Assembly: GCA_965219685.1 (NCBI GenBank)
Contig: CBDCOH010000002.1
Span: 1 to 64,000 of the forward strand
Direction of reading: 5' to 3'
Length of the DNA: 64,000 bases
Origin: Candidatus Spongiisociaceae bacterium
Lineage (GTDB): Bacteria; Actinomycetota; Acidimicrobiia; Spongiisociales; Spongiisociaceae
The stretch's first letter is position 1, and every line of letters starts with the position of its first letter. Below the pieces are notes generated by a model, which saw only the letters and a list, made by a program, of their open reading frames with translations, searched no databases and was not told the origin of the DNA. Position numbers and translations under genes: made by a program. Of this stretch, positions 11,827 through 17,664 are shown piece after piece.

Positions 11827-12732
11827 CTAGTTACAGGCGGGCATTCCCTCGGTCGGGCCTATGTGCCTCTCGTAGACCTCGTCGAGCGTGCCCCTCGAGA
11901 TGTAGTAGGCCAGCCAGCCGTTCAGGTACTCGAGCCACACGACTTCGCCGCGCGGAACCGCCCAGGCACCGTACTCCTCGGCGACGAACGGCGCGTTGGG
12001 GTTCAGAACGCTGGTGCTCGGGTTCTCCGCCACGAACGGCAGCGCCAGGTATTCCTCGACGACGATGGCGTCGGCACGCCCGGAAGCGACTTCGAGGAAG
12101 GCGGGGGCCTGGTCGAGCTGGACCAGTTCCGCGTTCGGGAACCGGGTCTCGGTCAGGTTGGCCGCCGTGGAACCCGTGAGGGCCGTCATGGTCACATCGC
12201 TGCTGTTCAACTCATCGATTGACATGATCCCCGAGTCGTTGTTGACCACTACCACCTGGCGGTAGGGAACGTAGGGGCAGGTGAACCACAGCTGCTCGAG
12301 ACGAGCCGGCCTGCCGACCAGGCCCACGGACACCATGTCAAACTGCCGGGCGATGAGTCCGGGGATCATCGCGTCGAACTCGAGGTTGTTTATCTCCAGC
12401 TCCACTCCGAGGTCCTCGGCCAGCATGTTCATGAGGTCGACGTCGTAACCGGCCGGGTTCCCGCTGTCATCGATGTACATCTGAGGCTCGAACTGAAGGA
12501 CCATACCGACCTTGAGGGTTCCGCGGTCCTTGATCTCGTCGAGCAGGTTGCCGTCGACGACGCCGCCGCCGGCCGCACCCATCCCGTCTTCGAGGCTGGT
12601 GACGCGGGCTGCCAGGGCGGCAAGATCCCCGGCCATTTCGCCATCACCGGCGGCCCCGTCATCGCTCGCGCAGGCACCTGCTACCAGTCCCAACGCGATC
12701 ACCATCACCAACCACTTGATGCCTCTTCTCAT
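11827..12732 (-). CDS. Polar amino acid ABC transporter substrate-binding lipoprotein (family 3)
   Basis: Lipobox-like AGAC; RGTLKVG, GYDVDL, FDAMIPGL, GRADA; ATG at 12732 after AAGGAGG. Confidence 0.88.
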   Translation of the reverse strand: MRRGIKWLVMVIALGLVAGACASDDGAAGDGEMAGDLAALAARVTSLEDGMGAAGGGVVDGNLLDEIKDRGTLKVGMVLQFEPQMYIDDSGNPAGYDVDLMNMLAEDLGVELEINNLEFDAMIPGLIARQFDMVSVGLVGRPARLEQLWFTCPYVPYRQVVVVNNDSGIMSIDELNSSDVTMTALTGSTAANLTETRFPNAELVQLDQAPAFLEVASGRADAIVVEEYLALPFVAENPSTSVLNPNAPFVAEEYGAWAVPRGEVVWLEYLNGWLAYYISRGTLDEVYERHIGPTEGMPACN

Positions 12733-12841
12733 ACCGTTCTCCCTCCTTGAGGAAACTATCTCTCTCCCGATCCGGAGTGACCGGGGTGCATCCGGTGTTC
12801 CGGGACCCGCGTACCAGCGAGCCGAAAACCGGCCTACCATG

Positions 12842-13657
12842 CTAGGCAGCAGTCGGACCCTCGGACGATTCGCGATCCCGGCCGGCCCTGACCTGGTCCT
12901 GAAGCCTGACCAGGTGCGCGCTGCGGCGCCGGGCGAACGGCGAACGGACCTTGGAGGTGAGGACGTCCACGAGCGCGAAGCGCTTCTCCAGGTACTTGAC
13001 CCCGAAGTACACGGCGGTGGTCAGGATCAGGTAGCAGATGACCGTGGCCAGGTAGACCTCGAAGTAGCGGAACGTGCTGTTGGCCAGGAGGTTGCTGACC
13101 CGCAACAGTTCGGGTACACCGATGATGTAGACCAGCGAGGAGTCCTTGATCATGCCGATGAACATGTTCCCCATCGGCGGGATGACGATGCGGGTGGCCT
13201 GGGGCAGGATCACCCGGAAGAAGACCTGGGGCCGGCTCATGCCCACCGACATGGCCGCCTGCCGCTGGCCGTCGGAGACCGCCTGGATGCCACTGCGGAA
13301 GATCTCCCCTAGCCAGGCCGAGTACTGCAGTGTCAGGGCCAGGATCCCCGCCTGGATCGCTGAGATAGTCAACTCGAACTGGATGGCGATCCCGTAGTAG
13401 ACGAACAGGACGAAGACCAGCAGGGGGATGGCCCGGAACACGTTGACGTAGGCCGCCATGATGGGGGTGATGATCCGCGACCTGGACATGCGCAGGAGAG
13501 CCACCGCCAAGCCCAGCACGGTCGCCAGCGTGAAGGCGACGATGGCGATGAACACCGTCAGCCGCACCCCGCCGAGGAAGATGTCCCGGTTGTCCCAGAT
13601 GAACTCGGGCCGGAATCGGGCCTGGGCGAGTAGCGGGACTGCCACCAGGTAGCTCAT
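12842..13657 (-). CDS. Polar amino acid ABC transporter permease
   Basis: [32 protein letters not shown]. Confidence 0.92.
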
Positions 13658-14433
13658 AGGATCGCCTTCAGGAAGGCGCGGGTGCGTGGCTCTCCGGCGT
13701 TGTCGTAGAGTTCCCTACCACCGGTCTCGACGACGACTCCGTCGTCCATGAAGATGTTCAGGTCCCCCGCTTCCCGAGCGAAGCCCATTTCGTGCGTTAC
13801 AACCACCATGGTCATCCCCGACTCGGCCAGGCTGCGCATCACGCTCAGGACCTCGCCCACCAACTCCGGGTCCAAGGCGGAGGTGGGTTCGTCGAACAGC
13901 ATCACCTTCGGCTCCATGACCAGGGATCGCGCTATCGCCACCCGCTGCTGCTGGCCCCCCGAGAGTTGGGTGGGGTAGGCGCCCACCTTGTCGAGGAGAC
14001 CCACCTTGTCGAGATAGACGGCCGCCATCATCTCGGCCTCGGCTCGTCTCATGCGCTTGACCCTACGCAGGGCCAAGGCCACGTTGTCGAGGGCGGTGAC
14101 ATGGGGGAACAGGTTGAACTGCTGGAAGACCATCCCGATGTGTTGCCGGAGGAGACGCGCCTTCCCTTTGGGAAGGCCCTCTCCCTTGATCCCCGGACCG
14201 TACTCCCTGCCCTCGAACCACACCGAGCCGGAGTCGGGGATCTCCAGCAGGTTGGCCGTCCTGAGCAGCGTGGACTTACCGGATCCGGAGGGTCCGAAGA
14301 TGACGACGTGCTGCCCCTGGCCGACGGTGAGGTCGATTCCTCTCAGAACGTGGTTGGATCCGAACGACTTGTGGATCGCCCGTAACCGCAGTACCGGCTG
14401 AGCCTCCAAACCCGCCGAGGAACGCGAGGTCAT
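13654..14433 (-). CDS. Polar amino acid ABC transporter ATP-binding protein
   Basis: [33 protein letters not shown]. Confidence 0.95.
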
Positions 14434-14687
14434 GTGTCGAGCGGGGTGGGGCGGGCCTTGGCCTGGTGCCCATGGCGGCGGAGCAGGTCGACGAGAGCGT
14501 CCTCGGCGAAACGGAGCCCGTCGTGCATACCCATCCGGAACGCGGTCTGTCCCTTGGCGTCGTTGTAGTCCAACTCCTCCCTGATCCGCAGGATCAGTTG
14601 GTGGATGCCGTCGTCAAGGCCGTCGCCCGGTTCCGACACGCGGGCTCCCTGGTCGGCCTCTAGAGAGTTGCCGGGGGGCCGTCTCAT
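14430..14687 (-). CDS. Small hypothetical protein, coupled to the ABC ATPase gene
   Basis: ATGA overlap with the ATPase start; helical-looking sequence; the true start may be the internal GTG near 14639. Confidence 0.5.
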
Positions 14688-14733
14688 CCGTCAACACCCC
14701 AGATGATGCGTGGCGCGGCGAGGTATGTCATCG

Positions 14734-15012
14734 TCAAGGTACGGCGACGAGGGCTGAGCGGTATGCCCGGGCGACCCGTTCCAGTCCATCGGGGTCGAAC
14801 CCGGTTACCTGGTGGTCGCCGTACATCAGGAACGGGACGAGCAGATGGCCCGTCAACGCAAGCAGTTCCTGCCTGGCCTCGTCGCTCTGGCGGATGTTGC
14901 GGTCGTCGAACTCGACGGACGCCGCTTGCAGGTAGTCCCGCACGCGGCAGCACTCCTGTCAGGTGGGGGTGCGGGCGTCCGTATTGAGGCTGTAGAGAAT
15001 CGGGCGGTCCAT
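14734..15012 (-). CDS. Glutaredoxin/NrdH-like redoxin with UxxC motif (probable selenoprotein; in-frame TGA at 14961-14959)
   Basis: GAGGAGG RBS + ATG at 15012; reads MDRPILYSLNTDARTPT-U-QECCRVRDYL...LVPFL...GFD in one frame; TGA lies at the first Cys position of CxxC. Confidence 0.75.
14921..14948 (-). promoter_or_regulatory. Candidate bacterial SECIS stem-loop
   Basis: mRNA GCCGC-G-UGCGGG-ACUA-CCUGCA-A-GCGGC; apical loop about 22 nt downstream of the UGA. Confidence 0.5.
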
Positions 15013-15155
15013 CTGTGCCTCCTCACAATGGGTGACGGTGTCGGCAACAGTATGGCATCCGCGCCCTGATCCCTCGTATGCCGACCGTTTCGTCGCGCCG
15101 GAGCGTGAACGCATCCGGTTACCATGCCGCCGTCACTCGGGTGGAGGAGATGGTC

Positions 15156-15884
15156 ATGGGCGTGGCTCTGGTAACCGGCGCGGGATCGGGCATAGGTGCA
15201 TCCGTAGCGCAATGCCTGGCCCGCAGGGGCGATGAGGTGGCGTGTGTCGACATCGACGGGGACCGCGCCGCGGAGGTGGCCGCCGGGATCGAGGGTTCCA
15301 TCGCCTTGGCCGCAGATGTCACCGACGAGACTCAGTGCGAGGCGATGGTCGCCGCCACGCTGGATCGTTTCGGGGATCTGGATACCGCGGTGACCTGCGC
15401 CGGGATCGAGAAGGCCGGGGACTCGCTCGACTTCGACATAGACACGTTCCGCAGGGTGGTGGATGTCAACCTCACCGGAAGCTTCCTGACCGCCCGGGAA
15501 GCGGCCAGGGCCATGGCTGGGAGAGGCCACGGAGGCACGATCGTTCTCATCGGGTCGATCAACTCGAAGGTGGTCCTTCCCGGGACTGCAGCCTATGCCT
15601 CCTCCAAGGGGGGAGTGCTGTTGCTCGGACAGGCGCTGGCGGTGGACTTCGCCCGCCACGGGATCAGGGTCAACACCATTGGTCCGGGGGTGACCGACAC
15701 TCCGATGAGCGCCGACAGCCTCGCCAACCCGCCCCGGCGAGCCAAGCTCATGGCCCGTACCCCGCTGGACCGTCCGGCCCACCCCGATGAGATAGCCGAG
15801 GTGGTGGCTTTCCTGACCTCGGATGCCTCCAGCTTCATGACCGGGGCATTCATCCCGGTCGACGGGGGCTGGCTGGCGTTGTAG
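15156..15884 (+). CDS. Short-chain dehydrogenase/reductase
   Basis: TGAGSGIG, YASSK, IRVNTIGPG, VDGG; GGAGGAG RBS. Confidence 0.92.
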   Translation: MGVALVTGAGSGIGASVAQCLARRGDEVACVDIDGDRAAEVAAGIEGSIALAADVTDETQCEAMVAATLDRFGDLDTAVTCAGIEKAGDSLDFDIDTFRRVVDVNLTGSFLTAREAARAMAGRGHGGTIVLIGSINSKVVLPGTAAYASSKGGVLLLGQALAVDFARHGIRVNTIGPGVTDTPMSADSLANPPRRAKLMARTPLDRPAHPDEIAEVVAFLTSDASSFMTGAFIPVDGGWLAL

Positions 15885-15906: not shown

Positions 15907-16956
15907 CTATCCGATCGCCACGTCCACCACGAGCCGCTTGCCATCCGTACCTTCGGCGGCGATCCGGGCCAGAGCGTCAGGAACCTGTTCCAGGGTGACG
16001 GTAGCGCCGGTCAGTGCGGTGAGATCGAGCTTTCCGGCCGCGTGCAGGGAATTGCCGACGATGAAGTCCCTCCGGTCGAATCCGAACGTGGTGACCAGTG
16101 ACACCTCTCTGGACATGAAGTCGGCCAGGTAATGGTCGAATGACAGGGCGGTGGGGCCGTCGCAGATCCCCATCAGCAGCACGGTGCCGCCCGGCCGGAC
16201 GGCTCGGATGGCAAGGTCCACGCTGGAGACACGTCCGGCAGCTTCGAACACCACGTCGGCGCCGTGAGGCGACCCGATGGCCTCGCTTACCTGCCGAGCG
16301 GCCTCGGTGGAATCGAGGCCGGACACGTTGACGCCACCTTCGGTCCACGGGCCGGATGCTTCGAGCCGGTCGTCAGACACGTCCACCGCCACCACGGTGG
16401 TGGCGCCCATCGCCTTCGCCACCTGGCAGAGCGTGAGGCCGATGCTGCCCACCCCGGTGACTACCACCCGGGACCCGCCGCGGACCCCGGCACGCCGCGC
16501 TGCGTGCACCGAAGCGGGGAGGGCCGATCCCAGCATCACGGCTTCTCCAACCGGAGTCCCCGGCGCGATGGGGAACATGTGTGACTCCGGAACCACCACG
16601 TAGTCCGCGAAGCCACCGTCGATGTTGATGCCCAGGTGACGCATCCACGGGCAGATCATCTCCTCGCCGCGGATGCACCACTCGCACACCCTGCAGCCCA
16701 CGACGGCGTCGACCACCACCACCGATCCTTCCTGCGGTGCGGCGCTCGACGAGACCTGGACGACCTCGCCCACGATCTCGTGGCCGAGGATGCGGGGAAA
16801 CCCGAGCGTGTCGAGCATCCCGCTTGCCATCTGGGCTTGGAACAGACCGGCGGCGGAGGCGATGGTGCGGATCAGGCCCCAGCCCGGAGGCGTCTCCGGG
16901 ACCGGGATGTCCTCCAGCTCGAACCTGCCCTCCTCGTACATCGACAGGGCGCGCAC
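15907..16956 (-). CDS. Zinc-binding medium-chain dehydrogenase (atypical catalytic site)
   Basis: GHE, CRVCEWC...C structural Zn site, GVGSIG. Confidence 0.85.
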   Translation of the reverse strand: MRALSMYEEGRFELEDIPVPETPPGWGLIRTIASAAGLFQAQMASGMLDTLGFPRILGHEIVGEVVQVSSSAAPQEGSVVVVDAVVGCRVCEWCIRGEEMICPWMRHLGINIDGGFADYVVVPESHMFPIAPGTPVGEAVMLGSALPASVHAARRAGVRGGSRVVVTGVGSIGLTLCQVAKAMGATTVVAVDVSDDRLEASGPWTEGGVNVSGLDSTEAARQVSEAIGSPHGADVVFEAAGRVSSVDLAIRAVRPGGTVLLMGICDGPTALSFDHYLADFMSREVSLVTTFGFDRRDFIVGNSLHAAGKLDLTALTGATVTLEQVPDALARIAAEGTDGKRLVVDVAIG

Positions 16957-16992: not shown

Positions 16993-17664
16993 TCAGGTGA
17001 TCACGCCTTCGGTGTCGAGTTCCCAGATCAGTTCGCTGAACTGGTATCCACCGGGAACCCAGCGCTTGCGCGAGTACCGGATGTTGGGGTTGTAGGCGAG
17101 CGCGATGTGCTCGTCGAGGTCGCAGAAGTTGGACGAGAACTCGACGTCCGGGGCGTTGTCCCGAAGGTAGTCACCGATGGGGCAGTTGAGCCGGAGGACG
17201 TACTTCACCATGTTGCCCTCGGCGTCGAAGTAGCGCTCGGTGTCGAGTTTCGGGGACCACTGGAAGTAGGACCAGAACTCCTTGAAGAAGTTGTTGAGGT
17301 TGAGCGGCTCGCCCTTCCCGCGGGTCTTGGCGGCCATCTCGGCGCCCATCTGGTCGCCCTGGCGCTTGCGGGCCCGGGCTACGGCCGCCCGGCCTTCCTC
17401 CTTGCCGAGTTCGTACTCCATGGCTTCGGCGAGCACCGAGAAGATCTTGGTCTTGGCGTGGAACTCCGGCTCGTTGGCGTCCCACCCGATCTGGATGGGA
17501 TCGTCCGCCGACACCTCGCGGTACCGCTCCATGTAGCGAAGCTCGCCTTCGAGGTCGGACTTCGCCTTGGTTCGCGCCATGCGGTCGCCGGGAGCGTCGT
17601 CGATGGCATCCGCCAACTCCTTCAGCTCCGGCTGGGCGATCTCGACCCGCTCGTATGTGCTCAT
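16993..17664 (-). CDS. L-2-amino-thiazoline-4-carboxylate hydrolase-like (ATC hydrolase/V4R-like) protein
   Basis: CP....C..D....AYNP.I...R pattern; AGGAGG RBS. Confidence 0.6.
   Translation of the reverse strand: MSTYERVEIAQPELKELADAIDDAPGDRMARTKAKSDLEGELRYMERYREVSADDPIQIGWDANEPEFHAKTKIFSVLAEAMEYELGKEEGRAAVARARKRQGDQMGAEMAAKTRGKGEPLNLNNFFKEFWSYFQWSPKLDTERYFDAEGNMVKYVLRLNCPIGDYLRDNAPDVEFSSNFCDLDEHIALAYNPNIRYSRKRWVPGGYQFSELIWELDTEGVIT

Follow-up and report, generated by a model that had tools for sequence, protein, structure and literature searches.

What does a TGA codon mean when it stands exactly where a redox enzyme should carry its catalytic cysteine? This question is raised by a short locus on the minus strand of a 64,000-nucleotide stretch of DNA from Candidatus Spongiisociaceae bacterium (contig CBDCOH010000002.1, positions 1 to 64,000; here called the window). 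There, an in-frame TGA interrupts a gene for a glutaredoxin-like protein. A preliminary description of the locus had proposed a hidden selenoprotein of 92 residues, with a thioredoxin fold, an active site of the UxxC type (U being selenocysteine, Sec) and a hairpin resembling a selenocysteine insertion sequence (SECIS). As discussed below, it is very probable that the gene encodes a genuine selenoprotein, namely a 92-residue Sec oxidoreductase, with a SECIS located downstream of the UGA in the coding RNA and with a partner protein with which it would act.

The Reading Frame and Its Start

In the mechanical list of open reading frames (ORFs), the locus is represented only by a 69-residue frame that starts with GTG (14734..14943, minus strand) and, as had been noticed, contains no active site. 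An in-frame TGA leads gene callers to truncate a selenoprotein gene in this way. When the TGA is read as U, the frame becomes MDRPILYSLNTDARTPT-U-QECCRVRDYL...LLVPF...TGFDPDGL...AVP, with 92 residues. The ATG from which it starts and the strong ribosome-binding site (RBS) ahead of it are found as the preliminary description gave them, and purine-rich stretches occupy the RBS place before the ATG or GTG start of the orthologues.

The features expected of the fold are also found along this frame. The TGA coincides with the attacking Cys of a CxxC motif, as had been claimed: in three YruB-like proteins and in Protein Data Bank (PDB) entry 7c10, the residue aligned with U18 is the first Cys of TPTCxxC. 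Downstream are the predicted cis-Pro motif LVPF (residues 58-61) and GFD (residues 71-73). The unusual UQECC motif, also pointed out earlier, holds as well, and its third Cys is invariant in the family.

Conservation of the TGA

If the TGA specifies an amino acid, it should be kept together with the protein around it. A six-frame search of 60 related genomes (a tally of 61 genomes includes the unpublished G032 and G043, with no match in either) gave 22 strong matches in 21 genomes, its own included, with identities of 62-99% and E <= 6.7e-33. Each of them has one in-frame TGA (22/22). Four weak matches (32-37% identity) have no in-frame stop and are ordinary paralogues. In the closest loci that were fetched, the TGA is always codon 18 (20/20), and residues 4, 6, 7, 9-11 and 13-17 are invariant, although their codons differ. 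For instance, R14 is encoded by CGC, AGG, CGA or CGG, and A13 by GCC, GCG or GCA. In general, codons 6-17, upstream of the TGA, keep their amino acids with a synonymous entropy of up to 2.0 bits, and this combination of protein conservation and synonymous variation is present on both sides of the TGA.

A wider sample was obtained with a pattern scan limited to one genome per species, which returned 100 relatives, from which 80 loci were retained. According to the record titles, these loci belong to Acidimicrobiia (including Candidatus Spongiisocius and Spongiisociaceae), Acidimicrobiales, Thermoleophilia, Gaiellales, Euzebyaceae and Egibacteraceae, and further titles name Anaerolineae, Dormibacterota-type genomes and one Eisenbacteria metagenome-assembled genome. 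The patterns demanded QECCRV and VEFDDRNIR, so that the conservation of these two motifs is in part an artefact of selection; the codon before Q was left out of the pattern. When both sets are pooled, TGA occupies the Sec codon in 101 of 101 loci, which comprise 82 distinct sequences of Acidimicrobiia, Thermoleophilia, Nitriliruptoria-type, Chloroflexota and Dormibacterota metagenome-assembled genomes. The alignment of homologues at this position, a check that had been suggested, thus shows TGA in all of them. In an even sample across the class, only 5 of 401 genomes carry the gene, which is thus rare, and TGA is present in all five.

Another suggested check concerned reads with TGC or TGT in place of TGA. 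Contigs from three sequencing runs (X1, X5 and X6) cover positions 14959-14961 and show no other letter there; two of these runs are labelled sponge metagenome and come from another study. Within 14938-14983, all 10 differences in the metagenome contigs are at third codon positions and none is in the TGA. This is what would be expected of a real gene with a conserved, recoded UGA, as which we read the locus.

The simplest alternative is that the TGA is an ordinary stop, which would leave a 17-residue leader peptide and a separate 69-residue protein initiated at GTG 14943. This arrangement is the one that gene callers produce: of 30 relatives with a similar length in the databases, 29 have 63-69 residues and cover 62-74% of the query, and the seven that were fetched all begin at or after residue 24. 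In addition, read-through at this locus is a prediction from the sequence. Nevertheless, a product of 69 residues would be without strand beta-1 and all of the active site, and its GTG has no RBS. Moreover, the 17 codons ahead of the TGA share its frame and show protein conservation with synonymous variation in the 82 distinct sequences, from several phyla, and TPT-TGA-QEC aligns with TPTCxxC. An ordinary stop at this position is therefore exceedingly improbable.

Selenocysteine Machinery and Genetic Code

The insertion of Sec requires its own machinery, and the preliminary description asked for its genes as a first check. All four are found in the genome above the curated cut-offs: the tRNA for Sec (tRNA-Sec, selC) with 77 bits, selA with 435.7, selB with 322.7 and selD with 366.9. 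Furthermore, selD is a selenoprotein gene itself, with one in-frame TGA in the context SPGAG-U-ASKLG (G000 C2:2564589-2565512, minus strand). Beside it and the glutaredoxin gene there is a second such gene, encoding an fdhA-like molybdopterin enzyme with NRT-U-HAPS (C2:437446, plus strand).

A different possibility is that the UGA is translated, not as Sec, but as Trp, Gly or Cys, through a changed code or near-cognate decoding. A database protein, P0032 (see below), does carry Gly at the Sec position, presumably the product of a pipeline that reads TGA as Gly, and Cys insertion at Sec codons would be compatible with the sequence as such. By contrast, TGA is the commonest stop in the genome, where it closes 1312 of 2168 open frames of at least 400 codons, and it also terminates the glutaredoxin gene itself and 18 of its 20 closest orthologues. 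The only tRNA with a UCA anticodon is tRNA-Sec, and the Trp tRNA has CCA. This excludes a change of code across the whole genome; recoding must therefore be governed by context. The full Sec pathway, its use at the two textbook sites in selD and fdhA, and the position of the UGA at the catalytic Cys of the fold also argue against another amino acid, which we consider very improbable.

The use of Sec had been thought patchy among genomes of this kind. This is not borne out for the order Spongiisociales, where selA was found in 58 of the 61 genomes searched (G032 and G043 included in the count) and the machinery is near-universal. Among the 21 genomes that carry the gene, 20 have selA; however, as it was found in all but three of the 61 genomes, this co-occurrence is uninformative.

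Protein Family and Fold

The 92-residue protein matches the Pfam Glutaredoxin family (PF00462) over residues 9-67 with 41.3 bits, against a gathering cut-off of 22.9. Its best NCBIfam match is YruB (TIGR02196; 48.4 bits, E 9.6e-13), under a cut-off of 88.55, followed by NrdH-redoxin (TIGR02194; 31.1 bits, cut-off 85.75), Uxx-star (NF041212; 28.6 bits, cut-off 66) and mycoredoxin (TIGR02200; 18.2 bits, cut-off 89.5). Thus, none of the curated NCBIfam cut-offs is reached. The best solved relatives by sequence are a 'dithiol cGrx1' (7c10, 37.8 bits) and the NrdH redoxins 4fiw, 4hs1 and 1r7h. In the alignment V59-P60 is invariant; a six-residue insert, LNTDAR, stands directly N-terminal of the active site.

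For the structure, a natural orthologue in which the glutaredoxin (Grx) is fused to its partner, and not the protein of the window itself, was modelled, with a mean predicted local distance difference test score (pLDDT) of 78 and a predicted template modelling score (pTM) of 0.50. Residues 1-84 of the model have the Grx fold, with strands 5-8, 36-39, 61-64 and 67-70 and helices 16-30 and 74-84. The closest structures found by Foldseek are 3ic4, 7c10 and NrdH redoxins, including 1h75. Against 7c10, the template modelling (TM) score on the target is 0.91, with a root-mean-square deviation (rmsd) of 1.2 A over 79 columns. Two-domain matches of the GST/CLIC type were also returned for the fused model; their rmsd is about 10 A and they were rejected as meaningless. 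The 92-residue protein is predicted to be a thiol-selenol oxidoreductase of the thioredoxin fold, similar to glutaredoxin, YruB and NrdH.

Database Entries and the Cysteine Form

The relatives of this protein are present in the databases, where they appear in a truncated form. HMMER, run exhaustively against 1.84 billion representatives, returned 237 proteins at E <= 0.001, of which the best 150 were inspected. Among these, only one protein reaches the N-terminus with at least 40% identity. It is P0032 (109 residues), which reads TPT-G-QECC and continues into the partner domain. The other full-length matches among the best 150 are ordinary YruB-like proteins with at most 39% identity. A profile of the partner domain matched 348 longer proteins, and nine of the ten that were fetched are Grx-partner fusions that begin at Grx residue 24. 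The tenth, an unrelated protein aligned only over its last ~50 residues, was set aside. Altogether, the database relatives fetched (about 20) start at or after residue 24 and miss the active site. Those with a name are called 'glutaredoxin'; for instance, 'glutaredoxin family protein [Acidimicrobiia bacterium]' is the name of two NCBI entries. What is filed as a truncated glutaredoxin would be, in its real form, a selenoprotein.

In almost every selenoprotein family known, Cys versions are numerous. Here, no orthologue with Cys was found among the 101 loci, the relatives of similar length, the best 150 of the 237 HMMER matches or the ten fetched proteins with the partner profile. This suggests that selenium is indispensable, and cannot be replaced, in some step of the reaction.

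Candidate Recoding Hairpins

In bacteria, the published SECIS model (PMC13188914) comprises a loop of 3-9 nt with a G in its first two positions, a spacing of 16-37 nt and a minimum free energy of -7.5 kcal/mol or lower. Two hairpins follow the UGA in the window. The first (hairpin 1), GCCGC.UGCGGG-ACUA-CCUGCA.GCGGC, is the one that the preliminary description proposed as SECIS, and it is present as given, with a folding energy of -19.1 kcal/mol on its own. The second (hairpin 2), C-GUCG-AGUU-CGAC-G, has -6.8 kcal/mol.

The two hairpins can be distinguished by the way in which selection acts on them. The 93 nt around the UGA were aligned in two groups: group A, with 44 sequences including that of the window, and group B, with 38 sequences from Gaiellales, Chloroflexota, Dormibacterota and others. 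In group A, codons 33-36 (GTC GAG TTC GAC), at hairpin 2, are identical in 43/43, 44/44, 44/44 and 43/44 sequences, whereas other Val sites use three or four codons and other Glu sites two. Codons 23-25, in the 5' arm of hairpin 1, vary freely, with a synonymous entropy of 1.4-1.7 bits. The opposite is observed in group B: codons 24-28 (GTG AGG/AGA GAG TTT CTC) are fixed in 38/38 and codons 33-36 vary. The AGG and TTT of codons 25 and 27 are rare elsewhere in the gene; for instance, F is encoded by TTC in 35/35, 22/23 and 26/28 sequences at other sites. Thus, the freezing of synonymous sites is reciprocal between the two groups.

Base pairing follows the same division. Hairpin 2 is paired in 97% of the cells of the group A alignment and shows one compensatory change from G-C to A-U (L082). 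The group B hairpin, GUGAGGG-AGUUU-CUCUC(C/A), is 95.9% paired, with a change from G-U to A-U in six sequences and a switch of the flanking pair from C-G to G-C in seven. It spans +21..+35, its AGUUU loop lies 22 nt from the UGA, and its energy is between -7.6 and -10.3 kcal/mol, so that it agrees with every feature of the bacterial SECIS model. When RNAalifold was run blind, its consensus for group A contained hairpin 2 without hairpin 1, and that for group B was the canonical hairpin. The loops can also be compared with those of the other Sec genes in the genome. The fdhA hairpin has a GGUCU loop with its G-U at +23/+24, an E. coli-like distance, and the selD hairpin, GGCGCA-GGUCC-UGCGCC, has its G-U at +37/38. 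A G-U in the loop is the feature common to fdhA, selD, the group B hairpin and hairpin 2, given their loops GGUCU, GGUCC, AGUUU and AGUU. The last two share AGUU. In the clade of group A, SelB would, in our judgement, probably bind hairpin 2 through the G-U of its loop.

It might be argued that hairpin 1 is the SECIS bound by SelB and that hairpin 2 is conserved for the protein, through codon bias or for another role of the RNA. Hairpin 1 is strong, its loop is at the canonical 22 nt from the UGA, and its position is that of the canonical hairpin of group B. Its six inner pairs are 85.6% paired in the 44 sequences, more than in any of 500 shuffles or any slid control (<=66%), and include one covarying pair (UA 14, GC 12, CG 2, unpaired 16). 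If its closing G-C is opened, the loop becomes GACUAC, with G first, in agreement with the loosest form of the published model (PMC13188914). By contrast, its loop varies among relatives (ACUA, ACCA, AGUA, AUUA, ACUU, AUUU) and lacks the G-U of the fdhA, selD and group B hairpins. Third-position changes without compensation leave pair 33-40 open in 12/44 sequences and pair 30-43 in 16/44, the entropy of codons 23-25 is as high as anywhere in the gene, and the RNAalifold consensus leaves this hairpin out. Its two outermost pairs are kept in 4/44 and 5/44, so the outer stem is particular to the sequence of the window. Of the original proposal, then, the canonical distance stands; the loop without G in its first two positions, the variable loop and 5' arm, and the stronger constraint on hairpin 2 count against it. 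We regard hairpin 1 as an unlikely SECIS, yet one to be taken seriously.

Other RNA features were also considered. In Rfam, region 14600-15100 gave nothing relevant at E <= 10, only a chance match at 12.7 bits. A basal stem that would enclose both hairpins (+6..+12 with +62..+70) is 94% paired; this value is matched by 120 of 500 shuffles, and the pairing is indistinguishable from them because the columns are constrained by the protein.

Separately, a mini-hairpin of three pairs, CAG-GAGUG-CUG, which both clades retain, stands directly after the UGA (14948-14958, minus strand; +4 to +14). In place of its pair G6-C12, L072 has A-U, as does L121 by an independent change (CAA with UGU), and 14 further sequences have G-U; A-C never occurs. 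This position would be inside the ribosome while the UGA is decoded.

Partner Gene and Transporter Operon

Directly downstream of the Grx gene, a short gene encodes an 85-residue protein that has no Pfam or NCBIfam match; in the protein atlas, it finds only unnamed actinobacterial clusters. Residues R34, E38, K45, R51, G53, D56 and G57 of this partner are invariant, and N42, H55, F60, D63 and A64 nearly so. Of the 101 loci, 99 have a copy, which nearly always follows the Grx gene immediately. The other two have short flanks, and in longer loci of the same genomes the partner is found 2.7 kb upstream (the L057/L058 lineage). In that lineage, the partner heads the same ATP-binding cassette (ABC) transporter operon, with the Grx gene at its tail. 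In 23 of the 80 loci, from Acidimicrobiales, Anaerolineae and Dormibacterota-type genomes, the Grx and its partner are fused in frame. In the fused model the partner consists of helices 114-134 and 139-161, which follow a disordered linker. It is from the gene fusion that we infer physical binding between the two proteins.

The operon continues with the genes of an importer for polar amino acids. The partner gene overlaps the ATPase gene, and this in turn the permease gene, through ATGA start/stop overlaps, and no terminator-like site was found between 15300 and 11700. In Pfam, the three proteins match ABC_tran, BPD_transp_1 and SBP_bac_3. Their best NCBIfam matches are the cystine TcyN and cystine permease models, all below cut-offs. 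The importer adjoins the pair in 21 of the 80 loci, all of the closest clade, and it stays in the operon where the gene order is rearranged. The features discussed so far are collected in Table 1.

Table 1. Positions of the Sec-containing glutaredoxin gene, its putative recoding elements and the genes downstream (window coordinates).
Feature	Position	Strand	Remarks
Full coding sequence of the 92-residue Sec-containing glutaredoxin-like protein	14734..15012	minus	ATG 15012; Sec-TGA 14961-14959; terminating TGA 14736-14734
RBS GAGGAGG	15018..15024	minus	5 nt ahead of ATG 15012-15010; read directly
Sec codon UGA, codon 18	14959..14961	minus	first position of the UQEC active site, then a further invariant Cys (UQECC)
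Hairpin 1	14921..14948	minus	loop 14936-14933, starts 22 nt past the UGA; probably a spacer or auxiliary helix
Hairpin 2	14904..14917	minus	loop 14912-14909; G-U at 14911-14910 (+51/+52, counted from the UGA's U); probably the SECIS bound by SelB in this clade
Partner gene, 85 residues	14430..14687	minus	N-terminal PPGNSL motif, then a helical hairpin; no Cys
Polar amino-acid ABC importer	11827..14433	minus	ATPase 14433-13654; permease 13657-12842; binding protein 12840-11827

Other genes are found around the pair. A SnoaL-like gene (PF13577) stands beside it in 11 of the 101 loci, a Thermoleophilia-like subset (L084-L086, L089, L091, L099, L104-L106, L108, L111), downstream of the partner in ten and upstream of the Grx gene in L099. 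When ORFs were clustered to look for further neighbours, spurious long frames, which arise in GC-rich DNA, confounded the result. In the window, a short-chain dehydrogenase gene (15078-15884, plus strand) is divergent from the Grx gene. Beyond it lie genes for a Zn-alcohol-dehydrogenase-like protein and for a protein with an L-2-amino-thiazoline-4-carboxylate hydrolase domain, a family of cysteine-forming enzymes (15907-16956 and 16993-17664, minus strand). In the closest relatives, synteny is kept for all three genes, at 77-92% identity, and the sulfur-amino-acid theme of the neighbours fits a cystine-like transporter.

Proposed Mechanism and Its Weighing

The thioredoxin-fold UxxC enzymes use Sec to attack a disulfide, a selenosulfide or a sulfenic acid, after which Cys resolves the intermediate. 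In the proposed mechanism, translation would begin at ATG 15012, and SelB with Sec-tRNA(Sec) would insert selenocysteine at the UGA as residue 18. This Sec18 would be the attacking residue of the U-Q-E-C centre, Cys21 would resolve the mixed intermediate, and the invariant Cys22 would be extra. As the terminating TGA, 75 codons past the Sec-TGA, is the same codon, recoding depends on the local context. In this clade, that context would be hairpin 2, bound by SelB through the G-U of its loop; hairpin 1, when folded, would join its own 5' and 3' ends and thereby leave hairpin 2 at an effectively normal distance from the ribosome. The more distant clades have only one hairpin, of canonical form, whose AGUUU loop is at the usual distance. 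The Grx would act with the 85-residue helical partner, which may supply specificity or docking. In this organism, the two would head the operon of the cystine-like importer, from which position we infer a role in the reduction of a disulfide or selenosulfide linked to uptake. The substrate would then be linked to the imported amino acid, with cystine or a related disulfide as the obvious candidate. The gene, its conserved UGA, the Sec machinery, the fold, the tie to the partner and the way in which the RNA is constrained are shown by the analysis; the hairpin used by SelB, the binding of the partner and the substrate are proposals.

Several observations weigh against this interpretation or parts of it. 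Sec incorporation, transcript and peptide are all predicted here from the DNA, and among 23 runs, no RNA run is listed as containing the stretch. The gene is also carried by G026 (96% complete, 160 contigs), in which selA was not found. Neither hairpin agrees entirely with the published model: hairpin 1 has an acceptable spacing (22 nt) and energy (-19.1 kcal/mol), but A and C where the loop should have G in its first two positions, and hairpin 2 is 46 nt from the UGA, where the model has 16-37, and at -6.8 kcal/mol does not reach -7.5. In addition, hairpin 2 is nearly invariant, and its conservation could come in part from the peptide SVEFDD and codon bias. As to the partner, the pTM of 0.50 and the disordered linker mean that the fused model does not establish a contact between the domains. 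Since the importer is present in only 21 of 80 loci, what is said about the substrate would be valid at most for this clade.

Taken further, the observations might describe a module that has not been recognised before. It would be a two-part, obligately selenium-dependent system, made of the UQECC Grx and the PPGNSL domain, without Cys forms, and spread across at least Actinomycetota, Chloroflexota and Dormibacterota. Within it, the recoding signal would have been relocated from a canonical hairpin at codons 24-29 to codons 32-37, where a new hairpin lies 46 nt from the UGA, with the old hairpin kept as a folded spacer. We put this forward tentatively, as possible rather than probable. If it is true, SelB can act well outside the accepted 16-37 nt, and searches based on the SECIS model would systematically miss this clade. 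The reciprocal freezing of codons would then resemble a natural relocation of a recoding signal within a coding sequence. A family that uses only Sec, is tied to a partner across phyla and is systematically mis-annotated deserves attention for these reasons; it is also a candidate reason why lineages such as the sponge-associated Acidimicrobiia retain the Sec machinery.

Other Observations in the Genome

Two features away from the locus are recorded here. Contig C1, the second contig of the assembly (G000; 30,458 bases), has 59.2% G+C, against 65.3% in the main contig, and no tRNA. It is possibly a plasmid, a phage or contamination; the contamination estimate of the assembly is 5.93%. Furthermore, at G000 C2:1659740-1659823 ARAGORN lists a tRNA-like gene whose anticodon has four bases (tctc) and to which no amino acid is assigned.

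Comparison with Known Systems

Selenoproteins of this general kind are already catalogued. In Table 1 of PMC13188914, Sec-containing glutaredoxin (Sec-Grx; PF00462, UxxC) is a family with experimental verification among 119 families and subfamilies of prokaryotic selenoproteins, and the Grx-related entries are Grx, an AhpF N-terminal homologue and the UXX-star families. Likewise, the Global Ocean Sampling (GOS) survey (PMC2398784) describes 'Grx' and 'Grx-like' UxxC selenoproteins, and in its counts for Grx the Cys forms far outnumber the Sec forms. Thus, the kind is not new. For the subfamily with the insert, UQECC, the partner, no Cys forms and a displaced hairpin, no description was found in full-text searches of the literature or in the same table of PMC13188914, a coverage that does not extend to BSepDB. 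For the partner protein and for Sec use in Spongiisociaceae, none was found in these full-text searches.

To Sec-Grx, as far as its published description goes, the protein of the window is similar in its PF00462 score above the cut-off, in a UxxC site where Sec attacks and in a small, single-domain thioredoxin fold. By the same description, it differs in the LNTDAR insert, the third Cys of UQECC and the lack of any Cys-form orthologue among those found, and its gene differs in the obligate linkage or fusion to a helical domain and, in this clade, in a hairpin outside the canonical distance. YruB (TIGR02196) and 7c10 share the TPT-C/U-xx-C, VP and GFD motifs. However, YruB-family proteins have Cys instead of Sec and neither the insert nor the extra Cys, the score of the window protein is far under their cut-off, and we know of no pairing of these proteins with a PPGNSL domain. 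NrdH redoxins belong to the same fold class, with weak sequence matches, but they use Cys, and no ribonucleotide reductase genes are adjacent at the window locus. The UXX-star proteins (NF041212, NF041211, NF047338) are distant Grx-like selenoproteins that score 20-28.6 bits against cut-offs of 66-100. To judge by their family names, they carry Sec three residues from the C-terminus, whereas here it is residue 18 of 92.

The recoding signal has its own point of comparison in the SECIS of E. coli fdhF, where the G-U corresponds to G23 and U24. Both are stem-loops in coding RNA past the UGA with a G-U in a small apical loop; in hairpin 2, by contrast, the G-U is at +51/+52 and another hairpin lies in between. 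Taken together, the gene is predicted to represent a distinct subfamily of the known Sec-Grx kind, one that uses Sec only and is linked to a partner.

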